Positions 6,001-64,000 of a stretch of DNA of 64,000 nt are shown in pieces. Source of the stretch: Candidatus Omnitrophota bacterium (GTDB taxonomy: Bacteria > Omnitrophota > Gorgyraeia > Gygaellales > Profunditerraquicolaceae); contig JAPLLR010000046.1 in assembly GCA_026387455.1 (NCBI GenBank), positions 68,921 through 132,920 of the forward strand. Reading direction: 5' to 3'. Each line of letters starts with the position of its first letter. Position 1 is the stretch's first letter. The position numbers and the translations under genes were made by a program. The notes beneath the pieces were generated by a model that worked only from the letters and a program-made list of their open reading frames with translations, did not search any database and was not told the DNA's origin.

Positions 6001-9000
6001 TAGCAGCCACAGAGCTCTTTACTTTCTTCTTTACCCTGAAGAATGGCGGGAAGCCGGTTTCTCTTATCGGCCTCTCTTTAAGATATCATTCCCGGCTCAG
6101 TGCTCCTTCCGGAGGAGTACGGGGTACGCTAGCCGCAATAGTTTTCTATGCAATACTTTATTTGGGATTTATCTACCTAAGCAAGCTGTTAGGCGTTGCC
6201 AGCTTCAGCATCTTCTTCAGCACGCAATTCCAGTTAGGCAATTACCTGAAATTAATATCCGGCGTACTGATGCTTTTCCTTTCTTTATATCTCTTACGTT
6301 ATGGCGTAGGCACAGCTTGGACAGTAGTCGCCAGCTTCTTGCGCACTTTCCCGATGCAGAGCTTGGCATTGACTTTTGCGATCTTATACCATCTTGCTGA
6401 AGGCTACGGCGTGGCTGAATCCTTAGCCAGCTCTCCTTATGCATGGGTGATAGCTTCAGTTTTAGGTATAGCGATGTTTCTTGAGAACTGGATCAAGGAA
6501 GCCTGCTTCAGGCTAACTCCTCGGCGCACGAAGCCTATTAAACCTGCTACAGAGAATGCAAGGACTATCGGGTTAATATATGCGGGTGGAGATAAATTGC
6601 GTTCACCGGTCTTTTCCGAAGGCTCCGTAGCTAATGCCACCGCCATGCTTCTTGACTGGTTTGACGGGATGAAGGATAGATTTGACTCTAAGCTGCATAA
6701 GACGTTTGAGATTAACCGCCCGGAGCTGGAGCGTATATTTAATCTCCTGCATCAGAGAGAGCTTGCTAGTGGAGCTACTTTGTTCCATCCGGTGCAGTTG
6801 GTTGAGGATGGCGTGGTCCACAACGCTATCATGCCTGACATGGAGGTTATACTTAGACGCCATCGTATCTTGATCGATATCGCCGCTTGCGAAAAGCAGG
6901 ATATCCTGCGCGCCTTGCAGATTAGAAGATGGCTGGTTTCAATGATGAGTGCTGACGCCCATGTCCAGGATAACGGCATCAACCTGGTAGATATAGCACT
7001 GGCTTTTGAGGAATCCGGCATTAGCAGAGAATTGATTATGTACCTTGCCAGCAACAAGTATAATGATACCAGCGATAAACCTTCCCAGGCCAATATCAGC
7101 ATAAATGGAGAATTAGGCCAGAGATGTAAACTTGCTACGCTGATTAATACTATTACTCATGCTAAGGCAGTGGTCTTTTATGACTGGACCGCGTTCGCCT
7201 TTAAGTCCGGTTTCATGATCGGTATGGATCTTATCGAGGAAACACCCGGCCTCAAGCACATGATTATTACGGACAGGAACGCCTGCGTCGGAGACCTGAA
7301 AGCCTTTATCAGAGATGTTGACTATATGCGCACTAATCCTAATCTGGTAGCAATCGTTCCCGGAAGAGGCACGACCTTTACCCGGACTAATATCGGCCAG
7401 GCTTCGCAGTTGATCGAGGAAGGGCACAGGTCGTATCTGCACGGCGTGATGCTCATCGGCGGTCAGGCAGGAGAGGCAGTGGGTACTGGATGGGGTAATC
7501 ATATGCGCGTCTTGTATTCGGAAGCGGTAAATGCGTATCTTACTCCCGGATATCCTTTAAGGCCGCTTACCTCCCATTATAGAGACCAGGGTTTCTACGC
7601 CACTAATTTTGGCGTCCAGGGTTTTGTCCCGCACGCTGTAGGTATTTCCGAGGATATCTGGGCAGTGCAGCAGCAGACTTATTTGTCCATGTCCCTTGGC
7701 CGCGCGCCGTTCTTTACTACCTCTGATGCCTTCTGGCATAAGAAGAGGGAATCCTGGTCTCATCCTGCATGGCTGTCTGCTATGCCGCGCTGGTCCGGCG
7801 GTCTGCCGCAGATGATGCTGGATAAGGTGATGCAGAATATAGGAGATATGGGGCCGCTTTCGTTATATGCCAAGGAAGTCAGGGCGCAGGGCGCGCGCTA
7901 CTTCCTGACCGCACAGTTTGCTTTATTATTCATCTTTCTTAATCCGATTTCTGCCATTTTCGGCTTTTCGCCTTTCCAGGGATTACTGATTTCATTGGTG
8001 ATCTGGGGCGCTGTTTTTAACCAGATTCTTACCGGCCACGGCCTGGTCATGTATATGGAATCAGCCGGCTTTAACAAAGTCACTGCTGTTATAGGCGCAG
8101 GCATATCTCTTCTCATAGGTAAATATTTAATGCCGCTGATCGGAGTCTGGGATCCGACGATGCTGATCTTTGGTATCTTCTTCGGTGGCTTTATCCGTGG
8201 CTTAGGCAGATGGGCCTTTACCCGGGCCCGCGACATGCTCGTTTTCCCCATGCTTCTTACTGTCCATGTGTTGGGGCAGAGAGCCAGGCAGACTCTGGAG
8301 TTTAAGATGTCCGGTGAAGAAAAGACGGATGCTCATGGCGTGGATGTATCAAGCTCTATTACCAAGAGGCCCTGGTATAACATTATCCATCCCGCCTTGA
8401 TATGGTTTATCGGAGTGGTTAATGCCTGGCTTAACATCTATGCTATACTTACTGAGCACCATCTGGCTAATATCCTGCTTATTGCTCCTTCTCTGCTTTT
8501 CTCCGTGGGTGTCGTGGTGGGTATCTTTGTGATGTCTGTTCCCAGAGGAAAGAGCCTGAGGTTCTTCAAATTCGTCCCGCAGCTGGCAGGCTGGCTTGCC
8601 GGATATATGGTCCATCGGACATTGGACGGGTTATTCAAGATGGGTGTCCTTGGGCAACTTCCCGCAGTTATACTGGCATTGATTCTCATCAGTTACTGCC
8701 TGTGGCTGATCTGGCCGAAATCAAATACGCCGCATCACAGCTATTGGACCCGATTTATCTTAGATTTTGGCCGCATGTTCACTCTCTCATTAAGTATCTT
8801 CCTTTGGCCGTTCCTTGTCCCGCACACCCTCGTGATTAACTTCCAGGCTCTAAGCGGATCTTATATGCCGGTGTTTACTTCTGTTTTGCTTACGAAGATA
8901 GCTATTGTCGTCGCGGTATTAATCTTTGGCCAGATATTGAATAAGGCCGTAGGGCTATGTGAATTCCATGCAGTAAACCGGCGCTATATAAAGTGCTCTG

Positions 9001-12000
9001 AGCTCTTTATCCGTTTGAACAACAGTTTTACGCCGTATCAATCCAGCTCTATCGCCGGATTGCTGCAGGATATCCATATTTACATTGATCAGGAGAGCTA
9101 TCGCTACGCGAATGTAGTGCTGCGTAAGGCAGAGAGGGTAATTGCCGATGCCGTAGGTACTCCAAAGAGAGGCATTTTAAGGAGATTCTTCGCAAGCATC
9201 AGGGGTGACACAGTCTATGACCTGCCTGTCTTTACTAGGATTGAGAACGCCAATGAGTACTATAGGCGATCAAGGGCAAATCTTGAATTTGCCGAATGCA
9301 GACTGGAGGATTCAAAAGAGGAATTGGCGGCTGCAAAAACAAAACTTGATGAGGCAGAAATTCCAGCAAATGAGGAGTTACAACGGCTCATTGAAGAAGA
9401 AGGTCCATTACATACGTTGCAAAAAAGAAGAGACCTGCGCCAGGCAGAAGAAAAGCTGGATTCCGCAAGAAAAGATCTAAGGATGGCTTCGGGTGAGGAA
9501 GAAATAAAAGCTGCGGGAGCGCAAGTGGAAGCAGCGAAAAGGAAGGTTGTCAGAGCGCGTAAAGAATTCAAAAACGCATTGAAAGAATCCCAAAAGAGAG
9601 CAAAAGAAGATTACGCTCACAGAAAGAAAGCAGCCAAGGAAATTATAAAAGCAGCCAAGGCAGGCCTTAAGAAAGTCAGAGGGGATGCTTCTGGTTGGCA
9701 AGCGGTGGCTTGCGCAAAAGAGGCGTTAGAGCATGCCCGGCAAGAGAATAAGGATTTAAAGGAAAAGAGCCCGCGTGCCCAGAAAAAAGCAAGAATAGAA
9801 AAGGCCAAGAATGCCCGTAGGCAGGCTAAGGAAGCCCTTAAAGCATACGAGTCCTGGCAGGCATATTATCAAAAAGTGGTGGCTAAGAGCAGAAAGGCAT
9901 TAGCTAGGGCTAGATTAGCTGAACGTCAGGAAAGGAAGCACGCAGAACTTAAAGCCAATAAAGAACATGCCAGCCGTCAGGAAAAAGAGCGTAAGGCCAA
10001 AGAGGCAGAGCGTAATGCCGAGCCAGCTGGAGCCGCTGGTAGAGATGGCGTGACTAGACCTGATGCGCCGTTAGATTCTCCTGTTCAGCCTTCCGCGCCT
10101 TCTTCCGCAGTTCCCAGTCCGGCAGCCGAAGCCGAGATAGAATCCGTACTTTCCCAGATATTAAAAGAATCTCTTCCGGAAGCAACTGCGCCTCCTACGT
10201 TTCTTATGGCAGAGCCAAGAGGCGATGTAGTAGATATCGCTATAAAAAATATTACCGTGCCTGAAGACAGGCAGGATGAGATAAGAAGCAGAATAATGCA
10301 GGATATTGCTGCAGGCCGTATTGTAGTGCTCCTTGATGGTCAGATTATCCCCGCCGAAGATATCCATATCAGGTTTGCCAGCATACATTTTGAGATCGCC
10401 ATCAATAAGCTTGGCAAAACCTCTTTCCGTAAAGCCAAGATATCCTATACTGATGCCTCAGGCAAACAGCAGATTTTAGGGTCAATTAAAATTGATGATG
10501 TTGCTTCATCTGTTAAACCTACCCCGATCAAAGATGCAGCCAGCGCAAAGGCAGCCAGGAAAGCCAAAGCTGATAAGGAAAGGCTGGCCAGGGAAGCGGA
10601 GGCTTTAAAGAAAGCTGAAGAAAGAAGAATAGCTAAAGAGATAGAGAAGAAATCCGTAAGAGAAGCGGCAAATAAAGCTAGGGCTCAGGCTATCTTCCTT
10701 AGGGCTCAGAGGACGCAGCAGATACGCGAGGCATTCAATAAAAAGCTGACTATTGCCAGAAGCGCATTTTCTTCTTTCAGGCGCGCCACAGCACTTCGCT
10801 GCGTTTCATTAGTCCATCTTGTAGGGGATAATCTTGCCAGTGCCAGGAAGGCTTATCAGGAAAGATCTGCCAGAGTCAGTGCCCAGAGGAGAGAGCTTGC
10901 GCGGGTAGAGATATTACTGCGGCAGATCGCTGCTGCAGAGAGGCCCGAACAGATCACTGATGAATTATTAAACAGTAAGAATGCGAAAGTTGCGGAAAGA
11001 GCCAAGGATAGAAAACAAGTTTTACTCATAGAGCGGGTTAGGCGTGCGATGAAAAATGAGCAGCCTGCCTATAGTGGAACAAGAGGTTTTTCCAGTGCAC
11101 CTCGCAGGCAGCAGGCCGAGGTTACTCCTGTTCCTGAGCCGATAGCAGAGCCGGAAAACATCAGGCTAGATGATGGTAGATTCAGTATCGGCGCCAGAGT
11201 TTGGTACGTGCCTTATTCTGGGAAAATCGAAGAGGTCGTGATATTAAATAATGATTTGGAACATGCGGATGGCTATATGATAAGAGTTGGTCTGCGCGGT
11301 TCTATGGGGCCGTTTGATCGCAACCGCTTTTTTGCCACCAGAGAAGAGGCAGAGGAATTCTTCCGCAAAGAACATTCTTATCCTGCTTGCATGATTCCTG
11401 TCGAGGCTGCTGAAGCCCTGACTGAAACAGAGTTTAATTTCATCAGGAGCTTATTCGGTGCTGCCGCCTTGGATATGCTTGCCCAGCACCGGATACACTT
11501 AGATAGGTTCAATGTCAGGGTTGACGCCACCCTCCAGGTTCCTGCTGAAGTCAGAGACGGCATACTGTATGTGCATCCCAACATCATCCGGGGACCTCCG
11601 CAGGAACTGGAAAGAATAAGAGTCCACCTTGAGGTCATCTTTGCCGGACATGAACTCTATCATCTGCTCGGCGAAAATGAATCTCAAGCCAGAAACCGCA
11701 CCATCCAGTATCTCTTTAAGGACAAGCCCGTATTTAAGAACGAGCTTTTATCCAGCCATATACGCTTCCTGAAAGGCGATAATTCTCTTGGTCTAATAGG
11801 CGATGAAGGTTGGATTTCTCGCCTGGAGGCCGCTGTTTCAGTTGTCCACGCCTCAAAGTGGAATTTGAACTCTTACAATAAGACAATAGGGCGTTACCTG
11901 CCCGGAGGAATTCCTTCCGAAGTCGCCAGGATGACAGGGGTGCCGCCAGAAACAATGATGCAGGAGCTGGTAAACGATATTTATCTTCCCTTGCGTTCAG

Positions 12001-15000
12001 CGCTTGGTTATATTGCGCAGCATATTGAGGCTGGAGATATCAGGCCCGATGTCAGGCTGCGAGTTGCAGAGAGTGATCCTGAGGCCTACGTACCCGATGA
12101 TTTGCGCACTGGTAGTCGACCTATACGCGTGGGCTTCCTGCCCATGAAAGGTGATCCCTGGCAGGTCGGCCACATCTTTGTTATCTTGGAAGCCGTAGCT
12201 AAATTAAAACTGGATAAAGTAGTGGTCATGATTGATAATTCTGATCCTATCCGTAAACCGAACTTAACCTCTTTAACCGTACGGGAAGCCATAAGTAAGG
12301 CCTTGTTCGCGCATCTGGGTTCGTTAGTGCAGTATACAGCTATAACCAAGGAGCACGAAGAGCTTTTTGCCGTCGATGGAGAGACCGCGATTTTCAAGTT
12401 TATAAGCTTAAATAATAAATTGCCTGAGAACACTTCTCTTGAAGTTTATTATATGGTTGGTTCAGATCATCGTCATTGGGAAGTTAAGAAGAAGCATCCG
12501 CAAACCGACGCAGAAATAACTTTACCTGACACCCCGCAGAAACTTATTCTTAATCAGCTTCCTGAGCCGGATGTTATGAAGCGCTGGCCGGCACTTCAGG
12601 GAAATCACTCCGGTCTCTATGGCTATCAGCAAGGCATAAGCCCCACTGTTAATATACTTTTCATAGAGCGCATCGGAGAAGAATTCAAAAAAGATCAAGG
12701 CGGCAAAGAGGTTGAGTTGGAAGCCTTGGTTGAAAGCGTAGGAAAAAATATCGGCCACATCGCCAAGATATTCCAACCTATGGATACATCATCTACCCGT
12801 GTCAGAAAACAGTATCATTACTGGACAGTTCCCTGGGATATATTCCTTTTCGCCAGGGCATTTAAACTTTGGGGATTTGAAGATTCATTTGTTCCTGGAG
12901 AAAAAGGTATTAAATGGTCAGAGCAACAGAAGGCAGTTGCCGAGGGATTATGTGGATTTATTAATTCAAATGATTTTCCTGCAATAGAAGCAAAATTGAA
13001 AGAAGCCTATGGCCCGGCAATGAATATTTTTGATATGTTCTTGATGCAAGCGATAAACCAGTCCGAGATACCGGATAATAAAGAGCGTTTTGAGAAAATA
13101 CGCGGATTAATTTTTGCCAGAGGCGAGGAGTTTGTGGGAGAGGTTGTAGGATCTGCGGATGCGCAGTTAGATGAGGCTCAGAGGGAAGTATCCCCGGACC
13201 TTAGCACCAAAGACGCTTCCCATGAAGAAGGTAGCTCGTTTTGCGCAATTGCTCTTATGCCCGCATTATTGATTGCAGCAGTGGTAATCCTGGGGATACT
13301 GGTGGTTTATTTCTCGTTCAGGCTTCGCGCGATTAAAGACAAATTAGCAAAATTAAATTCAATTTATGCTGCACAAACAAAGGAGGCAGAATGTCTACCT
13401 TACTCGAACTTGGGCAGGGACTCGAAGTCACTCATATCCTCTCCCGTCCCTACGGACTCCTCATCTATGCCAAGTACCCCTGCTGGTACTCAGAGTTCAG
13501 TTTCCTCCTCAGCCCAGACGGCACCATCAGGGGAAAGACTCATGACGGAAACTGGTATGAGATCAGCTCCGAATTCTCCGATATCATCAAGGCCAAGGTC
13601 AATAGCGTCCTTATCTACGAGCGCAACCGGTTCTACGGATAACAGCTGTCAAGGAGACCGTTCTTCAAGCGGCCTTCCGGATGAAAAAGTGGATGCCGCA
13701 ATTGAAGAATTTGGCGGAATGGAAAGTATCTGGAATCTGGGCAAAATCAACGATGCGGATTGGTTATCTGTGCAGGTTATTGGCTTAGGGATGCGCGATG
13801 CCGCACGCAACTTGGACGCCCCCAATTTCAATGCTATTGCTAGGCTCTTAACAATGCGCGGGGTGCATTTTGCACTTGCTCCTGCGAGATGGAAGATTGG
13901 TGCCTGCATAGGATTCCTCAATGACCAGCCCATCATTATTATTCCAAAAGATGTCACTTATCAGGAAGTTGCCCTTGAAATCCAGGCAACAATAGTCCCC
14001 GCATTAACCCACAAAGAAAACCTAAAAATTGACAGTTTGCAAGGTCGCCTTTATGCGCTAAGGGATAGAGATTTAGTAAAGCGCATTGAGCAGGTTAAAG
14101 AAGGCATCTTCGGTACAATCAGAGACCGTAGTTCAGGGAGCGTGGTTTCTGGTTGCTATCTCCAGCCGCAAATTGCCAATAGGGCAGGCACCCGCGCTTT
14201 TATTTATGTTAAAGAGAAAACGCTTTCTTCCATGCGGCTGGTAACGGCCGCAGAACAAAGCCGTCTATCCACAAATAAATCCTATCCGGCTATCATGCCC
14301 GTGGAAAATCTTCCGGAAAGAGAGCCTCGGCCGGAAGAGTTAAATATAATTATTTCTGCCTTTGGCGGAAGTGATGCGCTTTTGGCCAAGGGAATCAATA
14401 TGAATGTAAGGATAAATCCGGCCCTGGAGTCCCCTGCTGAAGTAAGAAATGTCGTATTACATGTTAACCCCCGCATTTTAAGAGCGCCGCCCGAGCAGTT
14501 AAGGGTTATCTTCGAAGGCCACGAATTATTCCATCTGCTTCATCCGCAGGAACCCGAATCAGCAGCCAGAAATTATACTGTCAGTTACCTCCTGAAGAAC
14601 GGTCCTGCGTCACTTCTTAGCCATATCGGATTCTTAAATTGCAATTCATTAGGCATTCAGATTAAACACTCTCAAGAGTGGTTATCTGAGCTTAGGCAGG
14701 CTTTGGGCGATAAGTTTTATCCAGCCGAAATGGTGCCATCAGCCGGCCAGATAGAGGATATTACAGAAAAAGAATTAAATACGCTCATAGATCTTTTTGG
14801 TGGACACCATACAGGAATTACCTTAACTAAAGATAATGTCAAATGCTATTCTGCGCTAGATGTTCCGGCAATAATCGTAGGTGACATTCTCTACATACAT
14901 ACCGATATCATAAGAAGCACACCGGAAACACTGAGGGCATTTGGAGGGCAATTAAATCTTATTTTCAAAGACCATATGTTTTTCTACTTGGCCTTTCCTG

Positions 15001-18000
15001 AAGAAAGTAGGCAAGATGTATGGCTGCGCACCATTAGCGCGATCTTAACCGAAGATCGCTATACCCAGCTGGAAAGTCATATACGTTTTCTATTAGTTAA
15101 CCCTCTAAATCTTGCGCCCCATAAGGAGTGGTTGGACTACTTAAGGGAAGCCTTAGTCAGATATACAAGGCAGGATGTCGAACCACGAGCCTTAACAGAA
15201 TCGCCTTTTAAGCAGTTTCTTTTAGATAAAACCAGAACTAATCTGCGAGAGCGGGTTTCAAAGGGCAACCTTAGTGAGCCCATAATTTTGTTTGAAGGAG
15301 AAAAAGATAATCCGGTTGAAGAGACATTGCGTGATGAGGTGATGTTGGTGAGAATAGGTAGGGCACTTCACCTTGAAGACGCTCTTGTAAACATTCTGCG
15401 CCCGATACTTAATATGTACGAAGGAAAGGCAGAGGTGGTGTTTACTTCCATGCCCAAACACTATGGTGCAACTGAACAGCATGCATTCAGCGCTCTCATG
15501 GAAAGAGTATCCGCGAAACTAAATATGGCGTTTATCAACGAGCAATTTTATGAAACAAGAAACCGCCCTGCTATGGGCACCTTCCCTTCGGCAGATCCTG
15601 ATGTACGCAGGGAGGCATTTATATACACAGATAAAACCGGCCAAAAGAGATGCATAGTTGAATTCGACAATTCCGGAAAGGTGGATATAAATGGAAAGGT
15701 GGTTATACTGGTTGATGATGTGCTTACCAGCGGTACCACCATGCAGGTCTCAAAGGATGTGCTGCGTAATGCCGGCGCAAGAGAGGTTATTCCCATAAGT
15801 TTGTTGAAGGCGCCTGCGTGGCATGCCTTGTGGGAAAAGAATGAAGCTAAGCGCACTATCCGTAAATACGTCTTGAAGCTTGAAGAGATACAGGATTGGA
15901 GAGGGGCAACCATGTCCTTAAAGACAATTCTAGATGAGCTAGAGGTGGAAGATGAAGTTATCTCTAGAGTTCTGGATAACCTAGCAATGAATCATGAAGA
16001 TCGGCGGCAGATTTTAAGCGGGCTGGGCACTCTTCTTTATACGGGTGATTTTCGCTTCAGCGCGAAGTATAAGCCAGTTCCTAGTTTAGCGAAAACAGTT
16101 GAGGTACAAAACCTTGATCCGGGATTGTTTTCATTTATCCATGGCATCCTGGATTTAGGAAGGTATTGCGGAACTAAAGGAGAATGGGCGCTTTTGTTCC
16201 ATACCGTAAAATACGATGAAGCTACAAAAACCTTCTTGCCTGGCAAGGAAGATATACTTACTACCCTGCAAACTATTTTAGAGAGCGATAAATTATTAAA
16301 ACCCATACTTCGTCCCCTTATTGATGTGGTAATAGATTCCAAGAACAAGCTAGAAAAGGAACATGATAAATATATGAGGTTGGCCTTGATCCTGAGTACT
16401 CTGGAAATGACAAATGAGTTAATCAAATATTTTATGGTGTTTCTCGAGGAGTATAATCCAGAGATTCAAGAAGTTGGCATATGGTCGTTAACCGAGCAGA
16501 TTGCAAGACGGTTGGATCAGATAGACGTGGATGAAAATATCAAGAAAGAAATCTTAAGGCGCCTTAGACATCTGGGTGTATGGACCGCTCCGGGTAGGTA
16601 TAGTTTTATTAGGTCACTCTTGCGCCGCCTGAACCTGGGTGTTTATATTAAGGAGGTTAACCGTATACGCAGGGAATACCAGATATACGGCTTATCCGAA
16701 TTTAGGACTTTTGAAGATGCGCAAAGACTGTTGAATAGCGTGACGCGGTTGTGGTGTACTGGCTTTAGAGCACTGCTTACAGAAAGGAAACAGCCGATTC
16801 CTGAAAAAGTAATTGCTATTATTGCTCAATGGATAGCGTGCGGGGGAGCATTTAAGATCCTTAGCTCCGGCTCGCTAGCAGGCCTGATAAGGGATGGTTA
16901 TAATAATATTGTATCGGATATTCGCTTGGAGTTAGCCAGGCAATTAGCCCAAAAGAATATTTCCCCGGATATCGATACCCCTGAAGCTTATATTGAAGAG
17001 CTGATGAGCTTTAGTATGTCCAATAGCGCAGAGAATTATACCATAAATGATGCCAGTGCAGTCGGATTGGAAGATCCTCGCCAGCTGCAGCTGAGATTAC
17101 CCTGCCCGGGTATACCGGTATCAGAAGCGGATAGAGTCCAGGCCATCTTCGAAAAACATGGGCTTAGGCTTCTGGCTAAAGATAGCCCTCAACAGATATT
17201 AGCGCAGAGTCAGAGTCCCATTGTTGTCGCGTTCTTCCTCTCGCGCGAAAAAGAATTTGAGAGCTATGCGGAATCATTGGTATTCCAAGATCTGGTAAAT
17301 GATGAGCTGCAAAAGAAAACCTGGGGTCTGTTTAGGCCGAGAAGATACGATATGCAGATAAGATGGCTTGGCGGCACCGAACAGAAGTATAATGCATATA
17401 TAATCATTGAGAATGGCCAGAACGGCGATAAAAAGAGAGAAATGATTGAGAAAATCGACGGCATAAAAGAAGAATTTATGCAGCATCTGCACGTTTTTTA
17501 CACGGGCGATAAGCCTTGGCTAGAAGAAAGAGACGGAAGCAGGGGTGACGACTACTCTGTATTTAAGTTTATGAGAGATAGGGCTGCCGAAATGGAAGCT
17601 TTTGAATCGCACAGTCCAGACCTAACCGTGAATATCATAGCCGGCATACTACATGTTATTTGCGAAGCGGAAGGATTCGATTTAAAGGCACTGCAGCCTA
17701 GCAGTGTTTTGCCGCAAGGACATCTGAATGACAAATCGCCTTCTGAAGAAGCAGCTACAGAACAAAGATTTGTTCATTACCCCAAAATATTGATAGCTGA
17801 TGATGAGTATCGTAACAGAGAGATGCTGGTTAAGCTTTTAAAGAGAAAGGGTTTTTCTGAATTTGGCACAGCAAGAGATGGGTTTGAGGCCATAGAAATC
17901 TTTCGCAAAGCTAAAGAAGAAGGAAAGCCATATGATATTGCAATTATTGATATCATGATGCCGAAAATGGACGGTATGGACCTGGCCAGACAACTAAGGG

Positions 18001-21000
18001 CTGAAAAACCAGACATCTATATCTTCGTATATAGCGCCATTTCCAACGAAGAACCACTTAGGAAATGTTTAGCAGAAGGACTATTTGATGGGATTTATAG
18101 CAAGCCAAGCTGGGATATCGTGGGTGCTTTGCATGGCGTAACTCTGCTTTTGCCTACTGTTGGCATGAGAGACAAATTTCTATCTCTCATGACGGCGAAA
18201 ATGCATAAACGTTCTATTGAAGAGATTATTTTACCCCTATCTCTTGTCCAGGAAGTATTAAATTCAGATCCAGAGCTAAAAGAAGCAGCACGCAATATCT
18301 TTGTGGCAGAGGGACCGGGGAAAATTTATTATGTCCTCAAGCCAGGTCTTGGAGGTATTCCGATATTGGAGGTGAGAGCAGGCCAAGAGGAGATGGTGGG
18401 AGGACTGATCACAAAATGCGAGCGTCTGGAAGGAGGAGCACAATCTCTGCCAGGCGTAAGCTTAGATTTTACCTTTTTTGCTTGGGCATTAGAATCTAGC
18501 TTAAGCATTGCAATATTTATTATATTAGCTTATCTAATCGCCTGCTATTATAAACAGAAGATACTGGATTCTTCTCTCACCAGCCGTGCTCCGCCATTTG
18601 TCCGGAAGACACTTAATTCCTCACTCATAGATTTACCCTCCATAAGTATGAGGAACAGTGTTTCCCTTTCCTCCCTACGAAACATCTCAAGTGAAAAACT
18701 TCAACATCTGTCCGCCGCATTGCTAATAGTAATGGGTATTGGTATGTTAATTTTCGCGGCATTTGGCCTTATAGAGCCGCTATCTTCTCTTACCGCATTC
18801 AGTTCACCTCTTCTGTTTGGTACAATTTCCCAAGGCCCTGCGCAGAAAGACGATGTAGAAATGGTGATATGGAAGGCAAAGTCTGCTGTGCAGTTAATGT
18901 CAGGGTACACCCACGATCTTAATAATTGCCTGCAACCCCTTATATTCTCAATCAGGTTTTTAGGAGAGTCCCACGGCAAAGAATCTGAGGCAGGAAACTT
19001 GATAAGGGGATTACATGAAGAGTTCGTTACCTTACGCAAAATTTTACAACCGCGTCCCATAGAAATAAATGCGGAGAATGCCGCAGATATACTAGCTCAG
19101 TGCCGCGACTTGGCAAAGAGACTATCTGCCTGGGGGAATAACCTTGATGAAAACGTTTTTATTTCCAAACTGATAAAGGTCCTACAGGTGGAAAGCCTGA
19201 ATCAAGAGCAGGAAGAGTTGATAGACCACATCAGAATTAGTATCAGGGATCTTAAGAAGCTAATACAGAATCTGGTAAGTTTTATGAGAGGTTCACCGTA
19301 TCTAGACCGGAATGAAGAGGTAGACATTAACCAGCTGCTAGAGAGGGTGACTCGGGATCTGTGTAAAGATGTAGAAATACAGTTATCTCTTGCCGAGAAT
19401 CTGCCGCATATCCGAGGCAACAGTGCTGAGTTGAAGAACGCATTTACGAACCTCATTCAAAATGGCATTGAAGCATTCCTTTATTCTGATATTCCCATTG
19501 AAAAACCGAATCTTATATGCGTTGGCACGAAGCTTTCCGCAGATCAAAAGCACCTTGAAATCGAGATAAAGGATAACGGGTCAGGGATCAGCAAAGAGGT
19601 TTTACCGCATATTTTCGAGCCCTGGCTTACTACAAAAAGCGGAAAGAGCGTAAAGGGCGGAAGGGGCGGAACTGGCATTGGGCTTACTATAGTCAAAGTA
19701 GTCGTTGAGTCTTACGGTGGTACAATTTCTGTGGATTCTTCCTACATAGGTAGCTGCCCGCAATTCCACGGAACCACCTTCACCATCCGCTTGCCGGTTA
19801 CGCAAACCCAGGTGAGAAACCCTGACTTGTTAGAAGAAAAGTCTTCTTCCGTATCAGGATTAAGCATAGGCGGATTTATATCTAAGGAAGCGTCCCCGGA
19901 CCGTAGCGCTGACAAAGACCAAGCCTCTACCCGCACCGACGAGCCGCTTGGAATGGCGGGAAGGATTATTAATTTAAGGGAGGTGGCAAAATGTCTATCT
20001 TACAGGACTTTGAAATCAGCCATGTATTACCTAAGCAGGATCACGTTATTGTGTATATCAAGCATCATTTATGGTGGAAAGAGTATTGTTTCTTGGTTTA
20101 TTCAGACGGCAGAGTCAAGGGAAAGGCCGGCAGCGGCCTGTGGCTTGACGCCAGCGAAGAGCTTAAGGCTATTCTCATCGCTAAGCTCAGGTCCCTTTAT
20201 ATTGAAAAGCGGAGTCTTATCTACCAGTAATTTGCTGGAATCTTGGCCGCTGCGGAATCAAACAGGAAATGGACTACCTTCCGTGGCTGGTGGGGTCCGT
20301 TCTCCTGCCGCAGCGGCCATAATTTTAATCTTTGTCGTAGGACTATTTCTCGCCGCGCTAGGAAATGTCGATGCCTCATTATACGCGGCGATAGGAGTTA
20401 TTGTATCCGGCCGCTCTGATAATGATAGGGCTAGCATTCTAGAGCAGGAATTACTGCGCGGCATAGAAGAGAGGACTCCCGCCCAGATCAAAAATAACAG
20501 AATGATAGATTTGACAACTACGGGAGAATTTAAGATTACACTCACACGGACGCATCTGGATGATTTTGATGAGAAGGATAACCCTGAGGGTCTGGGTTTA
20601 AGAAAATGGTTTGCCAAATACAGAAAGGAAGCGGAGATTTCTACCGCCGGTATCCGCGGTAATCAGAATATTAGCTATCCTCAGGATACCCGACCGCAAT
20701 ATCCTTTGCATCTTTTTGCTATTATGCTGGCTACTTTGGCCAAGGCAAGAGTAGCTAACAGCAAATATCCTGACAGAAGATTGCATAAGATAGCCGCTTC
20801 CGAGGTAAGGTATAACTCTCCGGCATTTGTAGAATTGATTGCCAGGATCCAGGCGCAGGAAGGCATAACCACGCATACGGTTAAAGATTATCAGACTATG
20901 CCGATATGGATGGTTTCTTTCCTGGCTTTCATGCTTGATTTTATCGGCGCTGAGTATGTGACTGCCAGCCACGCCATTGCCACTTTTATCGCTACCAAGG

Positions 21001-24000
21001 ATATCAATAATCAGGGAAGCCAGTACCTGCCCGAGGAATCCCTCGAGTTCGTCACAGAGATAGAAAATATTTTCAATATTATAGAAGAGCAGGGCAGCTA
21101 TACGATTACTATCGCGGCCAAAGATAACCCTTTGATCGACACCGGCCTTCTTTCGCAACTGGAAGACGGCATACAGCTTTATGTTGAATATTTAAGAAAA
21201 GGCGTTGCTACTACTGCGAATCTCGAGAGAATCAGGGGTATGAAAAATCCGGTGGTTGTTGATTGCGTGGGCGGATGCATGTACCGGACCATGTCCAGGA
21301 TCTTTAAGCATCTCGGCATCGACCATAAAATAAAGTTCCTGCATGCAACTGAAGATTCCTTCTTCCACGGCGTAGGCAAGCTCGATACTAACCCTAAGAC
21401 CGGAAACCGCGAGTTCTATGATCTATCGTGTGACTTAGCGATGACTAAGTTCAACAAGAAGACGCAGCAGGTCATCCTCCCCGTAGTGGAAATGACCGGC
21501 TATAGTGAACTTCTTAAAGACTATCCGGTGGGAACGGTGTTGTTGATGACTGACCCGGATGGGGACAGGTTAGTCACCGCCCAGATAGAATCCGCTAGCC
21601 AAGTCTCTTACTTACAGCGCCAGGGAATAGCATATATTGATATGGGTGGTTCACGGGTATTGGCTGTTTATACGCCAAACCAGTCGTTCCTTATGACAAT
21701 CGCCTATCAAAAGAAGGCGTTGGAAGAGGCCGGGCTATGGAATAAGTTCAACTGGTTTATGATAAAGACCACGCCTTCTTCAAGGGCCTGGCTTGAATGG
21801 GCAAAGAAAAACGGGGTGCCGGTAGTGGAAGTTCCGGTTGGTTTCAAGGAGATCGCCTCGGTATTAAGAAAAGTAGAATACAGCCTAAGAGAGAATCCCG
21901 GCAAAGATGTGGTCATCACCGATATTTACGGCAACGATATTAACTTAGGGAACAATCCCCGTCTACTTTTTGGCGGCGAGGAGTCAGGTGGGGAGATCTT
22001 TGGCCCGGCGGAGTTGATCAAGAGCGTAAACGGAAGATTGATTCTTGCCATGCGGGAAAAATCTGCCGGAGAGGCGATGGTGGTCACTTCGGCTTTGGCC
22101 GCATACGCTCAAAGCCGTGATCAGACTTTATCTCTCTATCTCCAAGAGATCTTTGAGGAGAATCAGATTATTTCACGGTTTGATTACCGTGCGGACGTCA
22201 TATATTTTAATCCTAATGAGAAAGATCCGCAGAAGCTTTTAAGTGAAATAGATGAAGGCTTGAAGATAAGAACCAAGAACGATACCTATTTTTTGAGTAT
22301 CGCTTTAGCTTTAAGAAGCGGATTGATCAATATAGGACAGGCCAGGGCTATTCTCAAAGAGGCGTTCAGCGAGCTGGATTTCACCAACTTAGAGGATATC
22401 CTGTTTGTGGGAGATGGCACATACCTTGTATTTAGTGATAAGTGGGTCGAGATAAGGCCGTCCGGGACAGAGGCAAAGAATAAGGGTTATGCCGGAGGCA
22501 CAAGCCTGATGGACTGCGTCAATTACTCAGAGAGGTTATCCAATTATTCCGGAGAAAGAAACAGTCTGCACGCGCAATTTATAAACGAAGGTTTATATAC
22601 AGAAGTAAAAAGCAGGGCAAATAAGATTTTCCAGGATTTTGCGCAAAAAGACGGTGATCCTCAAGGCTTCCAGCCGCCTGTTGATACGGAATATCTCACT
22701 CAATCCACTTCTGGTATGGATCGCTCTTCAAGAGGCCTTGCGGATGAGGCAGTGGATGCTGCAATTGAAGAGTTTGGCGGCACAAAGAATATCTGGAACC
22801 TGGGCAAGATTGACAATTGGATGTCGGTGCAGGTTATCGGTCTAGGCATCCGCGATGCCGCACGCAATTTAGACGCTACCAACCCTAACGCCATTGAGAT
22901 GCTATTGAGGGCGCGCGGGGTGCATTTTGCCCTTGCGCCTCCGGGATGGAAGATCGGTTCCTGCATCGGTTACCTCAATAATCAGCCCATCATTATTGTT
23001 TCAGAAGACGCTACGTATCAGGAAGTCGCCCACGAAATCCAGGCAGTACTAGTCCCCGCGTTAACACATAAAGAAAACCTAAAGATCGACAGCTTACAAG
23101 GCAGGCTTTATACGCTAAGAGATAGATATTTAATAAAGCGCATTGAGCAGGCCAAGAGAGGTGTCTTCGGAGAGATCAGGGATCGCAGTTCACGCAGCAA
23201 GGAGGGTATATTTCCGGGCTCGCCGATGCGAAGAGTCAAGCTGCTTCCTGCCGCGCAAGTTGAGCAGTTCAAGAAAAGAATTCTTGCTGCTCCGTATCTT
23301 TACTCCAGATTTGAAATAGCAGAACCCAAAGTACAAAGAGAGTCTACATCTACTCCCGTAAGATTCAAATGGAACCTGTTTGAAGAAGAGATAATATGCA
23401 TTGGTCAGCACGATGTAGAATTAATGCAAGAAGTGGCGCAGGCAGCCGAGTTCTTGCGCGCGCATATAGGAGACTTAAAGGAGGATCTCTCCGGCTTACG
23501 CGGTTACTATCAGCTTGATATAGAATTCCCCCACGAATTATACATAGAATTTACCAGCAAGTCAGATGCCGCAGCAAAGTTAGACACGACAGGCAGGTCA
23601 CTTATTGAAATTAATTGGTCGATAGTAAGAGATGATCTGCCTTTCAGGGCCAGAATTGAGCTGCTGGATAAGATTTTCTACTGCGCATATCCGCAGCGCA
23701 ATGTGCATAATCTTGTCGATCAATATTTTATCTCCCATCATGAGCACAGAATCAGTTTTATTGAGACTCTCTCTAAGATCTCCCTTGCTGAGGAGCCGCT
23801 ACGCAACTGGCAATATGCTTCTTCTATTATAGAGAAAAGTAAGGCAGTTTTTGTGCTCCTGCCAGTTAACAATGCCGCGGATAAACTGCCTGCCTGGTTT
23901 AAGAGAATGCATGAAGAGCTGATGAAGATGCCCAAAGATTTCCATTTTGAAGTGATTGTTTGCGATAATGGCTCAACTGATTCTACCCGCAAAGCGGTGT

Positions 24001-27000
24001 ATTCGATAATGGGAAATTACAGCAGGGGAGGCACCCTAAGGGTCACCTATATCTATACCCCCACACCGAATAAGATCGGAGCGGTTAATCTTATGTACAG
24101 AGAGTGCGTAACCAGATGTGCCCAAGAGAGAAGAAGGAATCCCAAATTGTCCGTATATTTGCATTTTGCCGACGACGATGCTTTTATGGCGGAATATCTG
24201 CCGGAGATAGACAGGGATAGATATGGATTAACCCCCGAGGAGGATCAGCTTTTAAAGGACGCCAAGACACAGATAGGTCGGAATATTGCGGTTTTGGAAA
24301 ACCCGGGGCTGGCGTATAAGCTCACCTGGGGTTACTTGGAAACTAAGAACGCGGCTGTAAGAAGGGAACTGGATAGCACAATTCAGTTATCTGGTACAAG
24401 TTTACGGGTAAGGGACGCGCTACTTTCCAAGGGCATACAGTGTGTAGGTACCACGCCCATAGCTCATAAGATAGATTTAAAGCGTACTCCTAAAGGTGTC
24501 TGGCGGTATTTCTTTGAGCATGTAACCAATGTCCGTAAGAGGAACTTCGGAGTTCCGGTTATACAAATTTACGGACAGTCCTATACGGTAAATCTGGATA
24601 ATTTCGTGGTTATCCCTGAAACTCTTGATTACGAAGACTGTTTTATTTCCGCGCATTTCTATCCGTATCTCGCTACAAATCCCGTTGCCTTGCATTATCA
24701 TTCCGAGCCGGCAACATGGAAGGTATTTTCAAGAAGGTTTATGAGGGATTTAATACACAGGAGCCATCTCGAAGAATACTTTAAAGGGACTAATCCCGTA
24801 TTAGAGAATAAATGTACAAGGTTTACGGCAATAAGGGAGTCTAGCCACTCTGAAATTACTAGGGTGATCAGGTCGACTGCAAAATGGCATTCTTCTTTAC
24901 GCATCCTTAATAGGGCCAACAAATTGTTAAAAGACATCCTTGTGTTTTTATACAGAAGAAAATGGATTCCTAAAGAGTTGAGGGATACGCGTAAGCTTTT
25001 CAGAGGCACAAACCTTCCGAACGACGTATTGCTTTTGCACCCTAAGGAGGAAGTCTTCGGGATAGTCACCAGAGACGGCGTGGTTTGGCCGGACAGGCAT
25101 TGCTTGTGGGAGGCAATTATTCTCGCAGGGCTGGATACCCGCGTCCAGGGAGAGATTTCATTCTCGGAAATCAAGGAGGCAATGGAAAGGGAATTACATC
25201 TTTCTGATAGGAATCAAATAAGAGAATTAGTCATAACGCTTGAGAAGATTTGGGACAAGGCGGGTAAAAACAAAAATGAAAGCATCCGCCTTCTTGAATT
25301 TGCTAGCCTCCTGGGTTCGGGTCTCGTAAAGATGGAAGGCTTCAAGATTATGGGTGATTATTTGTTGAATCGCAATTTGTTCTTACTTTATAACGGGGTT
25401 GTAAACAGGCAAGACTGGAGATTCTCTCTTGTTTGCCTGCTGAGGCTTCTTGATTTTATTCGTTCAGCAAACAACATCCAGATTAATGAGCTCTGCGGCG
25501 TCATCGTGAAGTCAAAGAAGAGTTGCCCTAGCATCATGACTATAGAAATTATGGGGCGTATCATGGAGTTAAGGGATACCTTCGCAATCGGGGAGAAAAG
25601 GTACTCTATAAAGAAAAAGATGGGCGGCGGTTTTGGTGTCTGGCGCGTTGCCGAAGAAGGCGCGTCTAATGAATATATAATGCGTATGGTTTTGCCTCAG
25701 GAACACGAGGATCTAATGCAGATGTACAGGCGTTATAAAGAGAACTTTATCTGTCCGCAAGCGTATGACCCAATATTTTCTCTGGAGGTGCTTCCTTTCT
25801 TGAACGCTACGCCGTTTAGTAGTTTCTCGGAAGAGTGGCACCGTAAGAAGACCTGGGTAGGCATCGCTATGCAATTAACGGATATCGTAGGGAAGATGCA
25901 TAAAGATGGCTTGATTCATGGAGATTTGCGCAGGCCCAACGCTTTAGTCTTCGGAGGAAGCTATCAGGAAAGAAGGATTATTTTGCTGAATACCGGCTTA
26001 ACCGAATGGAAGGATTATTTATCACCCGAAGCGGATATATTCGGCATAGGATGTATGCTTTACTACGCTTTTACAAATCTTGACCCGGCTTACTCTGAAT
26101 CCTATACCCCGATTATTACGATCCCGGCAAGGTTGAATCATATTATTTGTAAGGCGTTAGGCAAGAATTCCAATGAAAAATATTCCAGCATTACCGATCT
26201 GGGTGATGATCTGCGACGGTATTATGATACTACCGACCAGCAGGAAAAGGATAGCGCAGAACAGACAATTGCAGGCGCAAGGCGTGATTTATCCGTAGAT
26301 CTGAATATTCGTTGGCCAGGCGGGCATTTTGATATATCCCTGGATAACTCAGAAAAGATAAAAAGTTTCACCAGGGAAGATCTGGCGAAACTGATTCGCT
26401 ATCAGGATAGTAGTTCTGAGTGGGCGTATGTGCGCTTGAGCATACTCCTTTTAAATCAGTTTTTACAGCTTAACCCCGATGCGCACCATATCCTTATTGA
26501 TATTGCCAGGCAGCAAAATATAGCACTTCATCCTCAGGTTACAAAAGTTATTTTGGATAAGATTCGCGAAAGGCAGTCTACACTAAAGTTAGAGGGTGCT
26601 GATTATTCATTCCAAGATACCCTTGCGCCAAGGGTATTCAGGGTTAGGGATGCGCAAGGTACGTCTTATATCCTTAAGATATTGGATGAGCAGGAAGTAA
26701 GATTTACTAATATGGGCATCGAGAATTATTTGCTAATTTACGATAAAATTCTCGGAATCGCCACAATGAGGATATTGGGTGAAAGCCTGCAGCGATATTT
26801 TGCCAGGCCGATTAGCCTAGAAGAGATCAAGGAAAGAATAAGGAATTGTATTGAAGTAAGCAGGAAGGTAGATCAAATCAACTCCGGTAGGAACATGGAG
26901 ACAGGGGGGATAATTCATAGAGATGTGTTCCCTAATAATATAATGCTGGAGGCAGATAAACCGCGCCTTATAGACTTTGGGCTTGCTGAGGAGATAACAG

Positions 27001-30000
27001 ATGAAACAAGGCATGCTGATATAATGGCCCTGGGTGGGATGTTCTTTCAGATATTCGGTTCCCTAAGAAGATGGATGCCTCTTGCTTATAAGCTGAATTG
27101 CCCCACAGGGGGTCCGTCCTCTAGCGAGCTCCTGAGAACTCACCTTCCGTACATGCCCGTATATTTGCAGGAGGCGGTAGAAAAAGCATTTACAAGGAAA
27201 TTTACTACTGCTGAAGACGTCGCATTGTGTTTGGAGTCAGCATTGAAAGAGTTAGAGGGGAACACTGGGATAATCAATGATTATTTGGGGATGGATAGCC
27301 CCGGAAGCTTAGTCAGGAGCTTCTTAGGCATAAGCGAAGGAAGTGTGAGTAGAAGGGGTGTGCCCCGCACAAGAGATCATTCTAAGCCGCGCGATGGCTT
27401 CACCAGCGATGATGTCGTAGAAGAGGCCATGGAAATAATCAGTTCTAGAAGGATCCGGACCTTTGAAACTATCGGATTGGACAGCCCGCTGGTAAACGAG
27501 GTATTAAGTTACTATACATTGACCGCGCAAATTGAGAAAGCAGCCAGATTAAGACAACTTGCAAAGGCAGGCCGTATTTGCGCCGGGCCTATGCGCACCG
27601 CCTATGGAGCAAACCTTCCGGGATGCATATTTATCGCTACCAATGACAATCCTAACTCCGCTGCAACCTTAGTCCACGAAACCAATAACGGGAATCATCA
27701 GGAAAACCTCAATGCTGAAAAAGAGTTTATGCTTTATCGCCTTTCTCAGGCTGATTTATATTCCGCCATTCAAGATTTAATCGCACAGCAAGTTTCAGCT
27801 GGTATAGTGCATGATTTCTCCAAGACCGCTTCTTATGACCGGATGGTTAGAGGCATATATAGAGTCCAGGTGAATCCAGCCAGGGCCATAGCCAAGAGGC
27901 CAGAATTGAACCAGAAAGCGTGTTTCTTGTGCCGGGAGAATATGCCTGCGGAAGAAATAGGTATAGAGGTGGATAGGGATTGGAAGATTTATAGCAATCC
28001 CAGGCCTTATGAGAAGAACCACTTTGTATTAGTTAAGAAAGAAAGAGGAAGTTATCATCCCTATCAGGAAATTTCTAAATTATCCGATATCGCCACTGCG
28101 TTAGAAACTATTTATAGATTAGGCATAGTACATAACAGAAGAGATTATAGCCTTATTTTTAACAGTCCCCATGCCGGAGCCAGCTCAGAACATTTCCACT
28201 TCCAAGGATTTGAATATCGCCTACCTATAACAGAGCTTAATGTCGAATATCTAAGAACAGATTCCACACTCAGGCTAGGCAGAGTTTTTGACCCAACTTA
28301 TCCTGCTTCTTGTTATGTGATTGAAGGGCAGAACAAGCATGATGTGGCAAATCATCTCTGGAGGTTAATAAAGTTAATTTACCAATTTAAGTTCGGTTAT
28401 AATCTGCTTTTTACGGTTGATAAAGATTCAGATATGTTGCGGGTTTTTGTTATCTTGAGGAAGGCGGAGAGATCCTCGATCTCTACGACAGGGGCATTGT
28501 CCAATGCTACTGCTGATATTTGCGTGGTTTCTGGCATGGCCATAGTTCATGAAGACAAGCAGGCAGAGAATATAACCGAGCAGGATTTTAGGGAAGAGAT
28601 CGTAGAGACTGTGGCCTACTCTAAAGAAATAGAGCGACTTTGGTTGAGATCTTCTTCTAACACCGGCATTTCCTTGCATGCTTTCGTCTTACCTTTCAGC
28701 GTTGAGCTAACTGCGCTCGTTTTATCCGCCATTCTGATCTATTTTGTCATTCGCTATTTAAGGCAGCAGATCACTAGCAGCGGAGTTTTTATTTTTGTTA
28801 AAGAGAAAGTGCTTTCAATTTCCGTGGCTGGCTGCCGAGCGCAAGCGAAGGCGTCCCTGAAGAGCGATAGCGTTGCGAGCGAAAACGAGCAAAGGGATGG
28901 GGATCAAGCCGCCGCAGCGGCCGCTTCAAAACAGCTCGCTTTCCAGAACAATCCAGACGTGGATGAGCTAAGGCCGTGTCTTTCATTTACCTGGCAGCAC
29001 TATTTTGGCAATATCTGTAACGGTATACAATTGCCGGATGCGGTCATAAAAGGAGAGTGCGATAAGAAGATGATCCGGGAAGTGCTGGAAGATACTATTT
29101 CATCTGCCAACAGCGGAATAGAGAAGATTAAAATACTTTTAGGAGATGAAGTTTCAGTCTGTCTTGATTCAAATAAGTCGCCATATTGTATCTGGTTAGG
29201 AGATGAGGGAAATTGCGGGCGCCACGGCAAGGAGAATGTTGATCCTGAAACGTGGTTTTGCTTAAAATTAAGCTCTTTCAGCAGCTTTGAATTGGAAATG
29301 GTGGAGAGCATATTTACCCTCATAAAGAAGCACGCAGAGGCGTTTCTGGGGCAGGGAGAAAAGATTGAGGGATTGCAGGTCTTAGACACATTTATAAAAG
29401 CGCTGATCAAGCATTATCGTGACATAGCCGAACGCCTGGGTTCCAAAGGGCCAGGTACAGATTATTTATCTCCGGATGACGCCTCAACCCGAAGCGGTAA
29501 TCCGCTTTCTGCTTTAGCTAGGATCAGGTTGGCGTACTACAGGCTTATTTTAAGATCCCGATATGATTCTTTTGATCAGATAGAGGATATTGACAGCTTT
29601 ATAAAAGATAATATTATGCCTGGGCTTAAGAGGGCTGTCGGGGATGGTAATGCCCAGCTTTTAAAGAGCTATGTGGATTCCGGGCATATCCGCGCCGGGC
29701 CAAGAAAGCTTTTTGATAAGCTCCAGATTCATGCCTTCAACCACAACGGTTGGATCATCTTTGATCCTTCCCTCCTCGATAATGAGAAACAGCTTATTAA
29801 AGTTCTGGCCCATGAAATAGGCGCTGTTTTCGGTCTGGATCATGCAACAAACAACATTATAGGTAAGATTGTAGCCCAGGAAGCGCTTACCCCGGAAGAG
29901 CAAAAAGTCCTCAAACAAGTCTCCGTGAGAATTAGTGGGATTATGAGAGAGCGTAGATGCGGAAATTCCGTTGATCCGGCCGCAGATAATGATTCCGGAA

Positions 30001-63998: not shown

Positions 63999-64000
63999 AT

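Follow-up and report, generated by a model that had tools for sequence, protein, structure and literature searches.

Two small open reading frames, ORF1 and ORF2, are, as judged from the sequence, very probably genuine genes for proteins of about 80 residues that occupy the −1 frame within a giant multi-enzyme gene. The window (the whole 64,000-nt stretch of DNA that we analysed) is traversed on the + strand by a host reading frame (3..64000) that is free of stops over 21,332 codons and open at both window ends; the other two + frames hold 1,345 and 1,740 stops. ORF2 (19991..20230, +; 79 aa) and ORF1 (13391..13642, +; 83 aa) each run from ATG to TAA and lie wholly within the larger coding sequence, on the same strand and in another frame, as comS and gndA do. 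Both occupy frame (p-1)%3=1 and, since the stop-free frame runs from nt 3, both are −1 relative to one continuous host frame. The strong Shine-Dalgarno (SD) sequence originally predicted for ORF2 was confirmed as AAGGGAGGTG (19976..19985, +), 5 nt before the ATG at 19991. ORF1 has AAGGAGG (13380..13386, +) 4 nt before its ATG, read in the sequence and in a scan for SD and start codons, and an A/T-rich leader precedes it. Outside the host frame, no other ATG ORF of 60 aa or more in the 64-kb window is preceded by an SD. Nothing resembling a promoter is conspicuous ahead of the two genes, and a promoter and terminator scan returned no more sites than in shuffles, none of them usefully placed.

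The host is a chain of enzyme and signalling modules whose linkers carry transmembrane (TM) helices. Its Pfam matches include Pribosyltran, Response_reg, HATPase_c, PGM_PMM I-III, GT2, Pkinase, Glyco_transf_5, Metallophos, ELFV_dehydrog (194 bits), Glucosamine_iso and PAS, with about 20 distinct families overall. With more than 10,000 aa, many distinct domains and TM helices, it belongs among the giant proteins. Both small genes are placed in linkers. ORF1 lies between a host TM helix with a basic tail (ALMPALLIAAVVILGILVVYFSF; 13251..13319, +; hydropathy scan), situated just upstream, and module M1 (13635..14141, +), which starts at the ORF1 stop codon, is 74% identical to host nt 22698-23198 and gave no Pfam match over its stretch. 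ORF2 lies between a HATPase_c domain (histidine-kinase ATPase; 19419..19802, +; Pfam 72 bits, residues 4473-4600 in the translation of window 6003-20999), which ends ~190 nt upstream, and a TM segment (AAAAIILIFVVGLFLAALGNVDASLYAAIGVIV; 20307..20405, +) followed by a phosphoglucomutase-like module (20439..22679, +). This last module equals a complete free-standing 753-aa gene elsewhere; residues 10-749 of P0063, found in an ordinary gene context in another bacterium, match host aa 6813-7559 at 50.5% identity. Over the overlap, the host reading is a poorly conserved Ser/Thr/Pro-rich spacer between two modules. Multi-enzyme, membrane-anchored giant proteins have been described in Omnitrophota (bioRxiv 10.64898/2026.06.07.730766; 10.1101/2023.11.21.568195), and the host resembles them: distinct Pfam domains tile one ORF with TM helices interspersed, and starch synthase, glycosyltransferases, phosphoglucomutase, response-regulator receiver and kinases are held in common. 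Nested or overlapping ORFs, frameshifts and internal starts are unmentioned in either of these two papers.

The original prediction that ORF2 is a paralog of ORF1 was borne out. The two proteins are identical at 25 of 74 positions by blastp (34%, 59% positives, ungapped, 60 bits), and tblastn against the six-frame window links them at E=2e-14 and finds two copies only. Their Smith-Waterman score is 144, compared with 24.2±4.4 (maximum 58) in 5000 shuffles (z=27), so that the significance of the pairwise alignment persists under shuffling; the host-frame peptides across the same DNA score 43 (z=4). Two details of the prediction stand in part. The alignment is nearly full, but “end to end” is only nearly right because one 4-residue indel is required near the N-terminus. 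The start-to-start distance of 6600 nt and the shared frame are correct, but the exact figure has no meaning beyond its divisibility by 3: the family is always −1 to the same continuous ORF, so any two members are spaced by a multiple of three. Self-comparison of the host revealed no repeat at the 2200-aa offset and no 6600-nt periodicity; thus, the likeness between ORF1 and ORF2 is not a by-product of a host-level repeat. ORF1 is nearer to members from other samples (46% identity to P0003) than to ORF2 (35%), while ORF2 is 72% identical to P0001 and 54% identical to the copy at a metagenome-assembled genome (MAG) locus, L008. For ORF1 itself, paralogs were recovered but no ortholog. By these comparisons, ORF1 and ORF2 are old paralogs and not the outcome of a recent internal duplication.

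To the idea that the two ORFs arose by chance, or merely reflect a repeat within the host protein, we attach practically no weight. The TM-rich composition of the host does leave other long off-frame stretches open in the window (5927-6397 and 8471-8836), but these have neither SD nor ATG and their translations are without relatives, whereas ORF1 and ORF2 are significantly similar in the nested frame only and belong to a family conserved across many assemblies. These two stretches, together with a TTG-initiated candidate at 56140, were considered as further nested genes and rejected, either for lacking an SD and ATG or because they overlie host TM or kinase segments and translate to nonsense.

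The small-protein family returned 54 matches, about 50 of which are full-length clusters of 71–95 aa (counted at 50% identity), aligned from residue 1. A word-indexed protein search gave few members, and an exhaustive search of representatives was required. Every cluster starts at a conserved Met (Met1); in the alignment, residues G48 and W55 never vary, and W32, F38 and G44 hardly do. The AlphaFold (AF2) model comprises five beta strands and a long C-terminal helix (pLDDT 83–84, pTM 0.70), a confident prediction of a globular fold for the soluble ~80-residue protein. No family match was found in Pfam, NCBIfam, PHROG or PADLOC, and a Pfam scan of all 42 aligned members at E≤1 gave scattered single matches only. 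A motif match to the RecA C-terminal domain was rejected as a multi-copy-chain artefact, and neither sequence nor fold resembles that domain significantly. A profile search with the peptide alignment detected no loci in genome contigs or metagenome contigs; a degenerate DNA pattern detected three true loci among genome contigs and none among metagenome contigs. All three are MAGs labelled by their submitters as Planctomycetales or Planctomycetia, a point of difference from the Omnitrophota giant proteins; the window itself contains no marker genes. A collection of 15 billion predicted proteins does not include the exact ORF1 and ORF2 proteins, and most family members were called on short contigs only, where the giant ORF is broken. 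An annotation blind spot is thereby exposed.

A search of other giant-gene loci, proposed with the original prediction as a check, shows the same nested family there. The small gene lies in the −1 frame of a fully stop-free host frame in 11 or more independent lineages, three of which are the MAGs labelled Planctomycetales or Planctomycetia, and host-frame stops number zero at every nested-member locus (L001-L009, L013, L014, L020-L023). All nested members carry (A)AGGAGG 4–8 nt before the ATG, and SD, ATG and stop are kept in every one. Absence from closely related genomes, which would have spoken against the pair, was not observed: the ORF and the open host frame are both retained in L006, closely related with 86% nt identity to 20091-20981, and in the more distant P0001 (72% aa identity). 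Other members stand free (L010-L012, L016, L019), and stops interrupt both of their remaining frames. In L019, 82 nt separate the stop codon of a giant gene (6,803 aa) from the small gene that follows it. No giant gene is adjacent to the L010 and L016 members in the DNA at hand, and the association between small and giant genes is therefore not universal. The idea of a synteny with a response regulator, as in L010, was rejected, since generic receiver-domain similarity was all that emerged (E=0.003).

The constant −1 relation to the host would also be expected of a programmed −1 frameshift, by which the ~80-residue domain would become an alternative C-terminus of a truncated giant protein and no free protein would be made. 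An A-rich stretch (A AAA) stands just before the ATG in about half of the members, and the strong upstream SD could stimulate slippage in the manner of dnaX. This explanation is very unlikely. There is no conserved slippery heptamer, and it is absent in ORF1 (GCAGAATG), L002, L014 and L021; all of the about 50 family clusters align from the conserved Met; the ORF2 ATG is preceded at a distance of 6 codons by an in-frame TAA, and the ORF1 ATG at 18 codons by an in-frame stop; and the free-standing members share the same start. What is conserved is the SD and ATG and not a slippery site, and a dnaX-kind frameshift product was rejected.

Substitution patterns indicate purifying selection on the nested frame. 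Between ORF2 and P0001, DNA similarity is restricted to the stretch from SD to stop, substitutions fall 15/12/43 by nested codon position, and amino acid identity is 72% in the nested frame versus 44% in the host frame. In the comparison with L006, substitutions inside ORF2 are distributed 1/10/1 by host codon position, where host position 2 corresponds to nested position 3, whereas past the ORF2 stop they are distributed 25/23/45. The frame under selection thus switches from nested to host exactly at the ORF2 stop codon.

The low conservation of the host peptide over the overlap, with substitutions at host codon position 2, could be taken to mean that the giant frame is not translated there, and that the locus is a string of separate genes in which the lack of stops has another cause, such as composition or polarity avoidance. 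Where contigs are short, gene callers do split the region into a small gene and a downstream gene. We consider this unlikely in view of how synonymous codons are used. Given the small protein sequence, an exact calculation over synonymous codons predicts 2.7–6.4 host-frame stops per gene, yet all 10 genes in the calculation are free of them (joint P about 1e-24); for ORF1 the expectation is 4.95 (P=0.0012) and for ORF2 5.64, with none present in either. The third frame of the tested small genes holds 1–12 stops, and free-standing members have 2–3 in the frame corresponding to the host. Furthermore, the host frame is stop-free over the 64 kb and over every base of every related locus, a strong SD with ATG occurs nowhere in the host frame within the window, and flank indels relative to L006 total 30 nt at two sites, a multiple of three. 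The synonymous sites of the small gene thus avoid host-frame stops, keeping the giant frame open, and the enclosing frame is maintained across the overlap. The argument against chance, originally made from two copies each retaining an ORF, is now supported by paralogy, orthologs, ~50 clusters, selection on the nested frame and synonymous choice.

Nested members occupy non-homologous positions in different giant genes, with unrelated flanks, and DNA similarity between genomes ends at the ORF borders, as it would if a small selfish or mobile element had entered giant genes carrying its own gene, frame-preserving and stop-free. Such an insertion is highly unlikely here. Neither copy is surrounded by terminal direct or inverted repeats, for which reason the mobile-element reading was dropped; no nuclease, recombinase or transposase domain can be recognised in the small protein; and the window holds two copies only, whose mere 34% identity within one gene argues against recent spread. 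A mobile insertion element was accordingly rejected as a classification, with no terminal repeats, element enzyme or near-identical copies found.

The arrangement of small genes within a giant gene suggests how dual coding might operate. Ribosomes on the giant ORF would read through the overlap and produce the linker, while other ribosomes would be recruited by the internal SD, carried either by this same mRNA or by an internal transcript, and would translate from the ATG to the TAA, where the free small protein is released; its own strong ribosome-binding site would allow it to be made at its own rate. The giant ORF tolerates no in-frame stop, and a separate polypeptide can therefore be encoded inside it, on this strand, in another frame only. 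As to origin, the giant ORF may have grown via fusion of neighbouring genes and overrun a pre-existing companion gene, a “reverse overprinting” in which the linker would be the new reading and the small gene the old one. The free-standing relatives, one of them directly behind a giant gene, suggest that the giant ORF probably overran an older companion. That the small gene probably predates the overlap thus rests on the existence of these relatives and not on a rooted tree. A de novo overprinted gene was rejected in view of the same relatives.

The small protein might serve the giant membrane-anchored multi-enzyme protein as a free partner (adaptor, assembly factor or regulatory subunit, for instance), a suggestion we make only tentatively. 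A reading that we find conceivable, if still short of probable, is that the small proteins are obligatory free partners of the giants (in assembly, processing or regulation), that nesting is an evolved answer to the stop-free ORF, and that it originated by reverse overprinting. If so, the overlap has been kept through a divergence depth of 25–35% identity, and these pairs would be among the oldest and most widespread same-strand overlapping genes known in bacteria and a handle on giant-gene growth. For the giant genes, the small gene would be a natural marker of module boundaries and a hint at growth via fusion over neighbouring genes, and its product a candidate trans-acting partner.

Well-supported same-strand nested bacterial genes are few (comS, gndA, rpmH and some candidates), and most are short, young and narrowly distributed. 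The small gene described here differs in encoding a folded (as predicted) ~80-residue domain of a deep family, in the same relative frame in many lineages; the evolutionary evidence for dual coding in both frames is clean, which places it among the best-supported bacterial cases of a gene within a gene. The small comS gene shares its strand with a very large multi-module gene in which it lies out of frame; the transcript of that large gene serves for its expression, a ribosome-binding site of its own precedes it, and the product acts in trans. ComS has 46 aa, occurs only among close relatives of B. subtilis and is considered to have originated within srfA. The strand, out-of-frame placement, own ribosome-binding site and very large multi-module enclosing gene are shared with the present case, which differs in having ~80 aa, a predicted globular fold, about 50 clusters (50% identity) with some members free-standing, and two copies per host in a host of at least 64 kb. 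Unlike comS, the small gene probably existed before the overlap did, given the free-standing members of its family.

PMC11230408 cites comS inside srfAB of the Bacillus subtilis surfactin synthetase operon (references 30-32 therein). The same paper describes gndA inside gnd of E. coli as a same-strand, frameshifted nested ORF with SD, start and stop conserved in homologs (PMC11230408). GndA, a helix of 36 aa, starts at UUG in the +2 frame of a conserved enzyme domain, and its restriction to some Gram-negative species fits a de novo origin (PMC11230408). Conservation of SD, start and stop is in both cases an argument for function; in contrast to gndA, the overlap here falls on a non-conserved host linker, is always −1, and leaves the nested protein the more constrained. 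Overprinted genes of small viruses likewise use one DNA stretch in two frames, with one partner ordered and under constraint and its counterpart disordered and quick to evolve (PMC8227390, PMC3494269). There, the new and often disordered protein is the nested one, whereas here the nested reading appears old and folded, there is no compact-genome pressure, and the disordered reading is that of the enclosing giant ORF.

The forward reading frame that begins at nucleotide 3 runs for 21,332 codons uninterrupted by a stop, compared to 1,345 and 1,740 stops in the other two forward frames; the entire 64 kb therefore lies inside one giant host ORF (3–64000, + strand, at least 21,332 codons). The host is a string of complete modules for enzymes and signalling; those identified with Pfam include phosphoribosyltransferase, response-regulator receiver, HATPase_c, phosphoglucomutase (PGM) I–III, GT2, starch-synthase, metallophosphoesterase, glucosamine-6-P isomerase and PAS domains, several protein kinases and a full glutamate dehydrogenase (194 bits), with transmembrane (TM) helices in the inter-module linkers. 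One module (nt 20439–22679) aligns end to end with a free-standing 753-aa gene of another bacterium (50.5% identity over 748 residues). The architecture of the host corresponds to the “multi-enzyme metabolic” class among the membrane-anchored giant proteins that were recently reported from Omnitrophota (10.64898/2026.06.07.730766); neither that description nor an earlier giant-gene preprint mentions nested ORFs, frameshifts, or internal starts.

Two small ORFs lie on the + strand in the −1 frame relative to the host: ORF1 (13391–13642, 83 aa), preceded by AAGGAGG at 13380–13386, and ORF2 (19991–20230, 79 aa, ATG to TAA), preceded by a Shine-Dalgarno (SD) region, AAGGGAGGTG, at 19976–19985. The original prediction held that ORF2 is a paralog of ORF1 and that each carries an SD and is nested in a stop-free host frame; coordinates and stop counts bear out this placement, and the paralogy is confirmed by an ungapped alignment of 74 residues with 34% identity (E = 2e-14 by tblastn against the six-frame window, which contains only these two copies). 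Significance was retained under shuffling, with a Smith-Waterman score of 144 against 24.2±4.4 for 5000 shuffles (z = 27), versus z = 4 for the peptides that the host frame encodes across these two ORFs. No host protein repeat was found at the 2200-aa offset, and the similarity is therefore not inherited from one. The starts are indeed 6600 nt apart, as had been pointed out, but the number itself has no meaning beyond its divisibility by 3.

In a scan for SDs with start codons, ORF1 and ORF2 were the sole ORFs on this strand that lie outside the host frame, are at least 60 aa long, and start at an ATG led by an SD; the scan returned no strong SD with an ATG in the host frame across the window. 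Long open stretches elsewhere off the host frame coincide with TM-rich host segments and lack start signals. A 90-codon TTG ORF at 56140–56412 (+), which overlaps a host protein-kinase domain in the other off-frame and has GGAGG 9 nt upstream, was rejected as a gene; its translation is nonsense-like, it has no relatives within the window, and it probably arose by chance.

Both nested ORFs fill linkers. ORF1 lies between a TM helix (13251–13319, +) and a host module without a Pfam match (13635–14141) that begins exactly at the ORF1 stop codon, while ORF2 is preceded by HATPase_c (ending at 19802) and followed by a TM segment (20307–20405, +) and then a PGM-like module. A host-frame domain of ∼150 aa occurs in three copies (11376–11835, 14280–14703, and 14718–15153; 34–44% identity) that flank ORF1 on both sides; the same host frame is therefore coding up- and downstream of the overlap. 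The module at 13635–14141 shares 74% identity with a second one lacking a Pfam match at 22698–23198, versus 34% for the nested ORFs, suggesting that an uncharacterized domain recently underwent internal duplication or gene conversion. Nine nucleotides past the ORF2 stop, within the host linker, begins a 17-nt inverted repeat (20239–20255/20308–20324, 88% complementary, 52-nt loop).

A profile built from ORF1, ORF2, and one ortholog retrieved 54 proteins from 1.84 billion cluster representatives, ∼50 of them full-length (71–95 aa) and all aligned from residue 1. In a 42-member alignment Gly48 and Trp55 are invariant, and Trp32, Phe38, and Gly44 nearly so. This conserved family, together with the significant paralogy, excludes chance ORFs. 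ORF1 is nearer to members from other samples (46% identity to the database protein P0003) than to ORF2 (35%), and ORF2 shares 72% identity with P0001 and 54% with the copy at locus L008 of another assembly; the window copies are therefore old paralogs. The family matches no Pfam, NCBIfam, PADLOC, or PHROG family, and a collection of 15 billion predicted proteins does not contain the exact window proteins. Gene calls for most relatives exist only on short contigs, which is why the family went unnoticed. A confident AlphaFold model (pLDDT 83–84, pTM 0.70) predicts five β strands preceded by a short N-terminal helix and followed by a long C-terminal one (residues 60–82). Resemblance of profile positions 43–75 to a RecA C-terminal domain motif was discounted, as it reaches 8–14 bits per copy, does not reach significance against a single RecA, and looks strong only on chains of 4–6 fused RecA copies. 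P0044 (148 aa) and P0047 (142 aa) extend beyond the usual C-terminus, the former into the C-terminal sequence of an aldehyde dehydrogenase; the extensions may be genuine fusions or may stem from chimeric assembly or frameshifts.

Between the window and the P0001 ortholog at locus L001, DNA similarity runs from the SD to the stop codon and the flanks are unalignable. Substitutions at nested codon positions 1/2/3 number 15/12/43, and the amino-acid sequences are 72% identical when read in the nested frame and 44% when read in the host frame. Against the close relative L006 (86% nucleotide identity), substitutions at host codon positions 1/2/3 are 1/10/1 within the nested ORF and 25/23/45 past its stop; flank indels at two sites sum to 30 nt, which is divisible by three. 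Because host position 2 coincides with the third nested position, every such position-2 change alters the host amino acid. Selection therefore changes frame exactly at the nested stop codon. Production of the nested protein by −1 frameshifting from the host is unlikely, given that no slippery site is conserved whereas Met1 and the SD are, that stops in the nested frame occur 6 and 18 codons ahead of the nested ATGs, and that free-standing family members exist.

At every locus that carries a nested copy (L001–L009, L013, L014, and L020–L023; up to 8 kb examined per locus), the host frame is free of stops. An exact calculation, with the small protein fixed and synonymous codons drawn by host codon usage, gives 2.7–6.4 expected host-frame stops per gene (P(0) = 0.0001–0.029), against none in 10 of 10 genes (joint probability ∼1e-24). 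The third frame over the nested genes has 1–12 stops, and free-standing members have 2–3 in the frame corresponding to the host's. This avoidance is direct evidence for dual coding and contradicts a host frame left untranslated across the overlap. Ser, Thr, Pro, Gly, Arg, and Ala together make up 71% and 50% of the host-frame peptide over the two overlaps, against 35% of the host in full, a composition expected for a spacer. A conserved, real small gene and a maintained enclosing frame are thus shown to share the same DNA. Ribosomes elongating along the giant ORF would read the overlap as a linker, and others would start at the internal SD and ATG to release a free ∼9 kDa protein. As no stop can be allowed within the giant ORF, a separate polypeptide can be encoded on the same strand inside it only in an alternative frame.

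Placement is always −1 within a stop-free frame for ORF1, ORF2, P0001 (L001–L005), L006, P0059, P0040, P0009, P0021, and L007–L009, three genome loci labeled uncultured Planctomycetales or Planctomycetia. On two short contigs, L015 (228–376) and L017 (54–319), a host-like frame opens just upstream of the small gene; these members are probably nested or close to the 5′ end of the host ORF, and in some genomes the small gene may sit at the very 5′ end of the giant ORF. P0042 and P0061 are not nested and have an ordinary gene context. At L019 (9916–10300; JGI 3300038380, 61-kb contig, GC 35%), a 6,803-aa giant gene (GlnD_UR_UTase, ACT, DnaJ, AP_endonuc_2, and DAO domains) stops with TAA at 9916–9918, and the small gene (P0006) follows 82 nt further on with its own SD, appearing to be the last cistron of a giant-gene operon. 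A terminator-like hairpin, CACAAAAAAGCATTGCTTTTTTGTG, follows this small gene, with ordinary genes beyond. From the free-standing relatives and this copy located shortly after the end of a giant gene, we infer that the small gene is older than the overlap; a giant ORF fusing with downstream genes would have overrun it. A mobile insertion carrying the small gene is unlikely, as no terminal repeats, associated enzyme, or recent copies were found.

Same-strand nested genes are known, such as comS in srfAB and gndA in gnd (PMC11230408). The novel features of this case are how deeply and broadly a folded ∼80-aa protein is conserved in a fixed relative frame, the giant gene as host, and an overprinting polarity that appears to be the reverse of the usual one. 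Hosts at the other loci likewise consist of ordinary domains in series (GGDEF and HEAT; Peptidase_M50 and PGM; LysM; PFK), and this recurrent association with giant multi-enzyme genes suggests, as the weakest step of our interpretation, that the small protein is a free partner subunit or factor of the giant proteins. At L008 (minus strand), the host carries a Peptidase_M50 (site-2 protease) domain at residues 283–406, ∼130 residues upstream of the nested gene; alongside the linker TM helices, it raises the idea that giant proteins might be cut within the membrane into separate enzymes.
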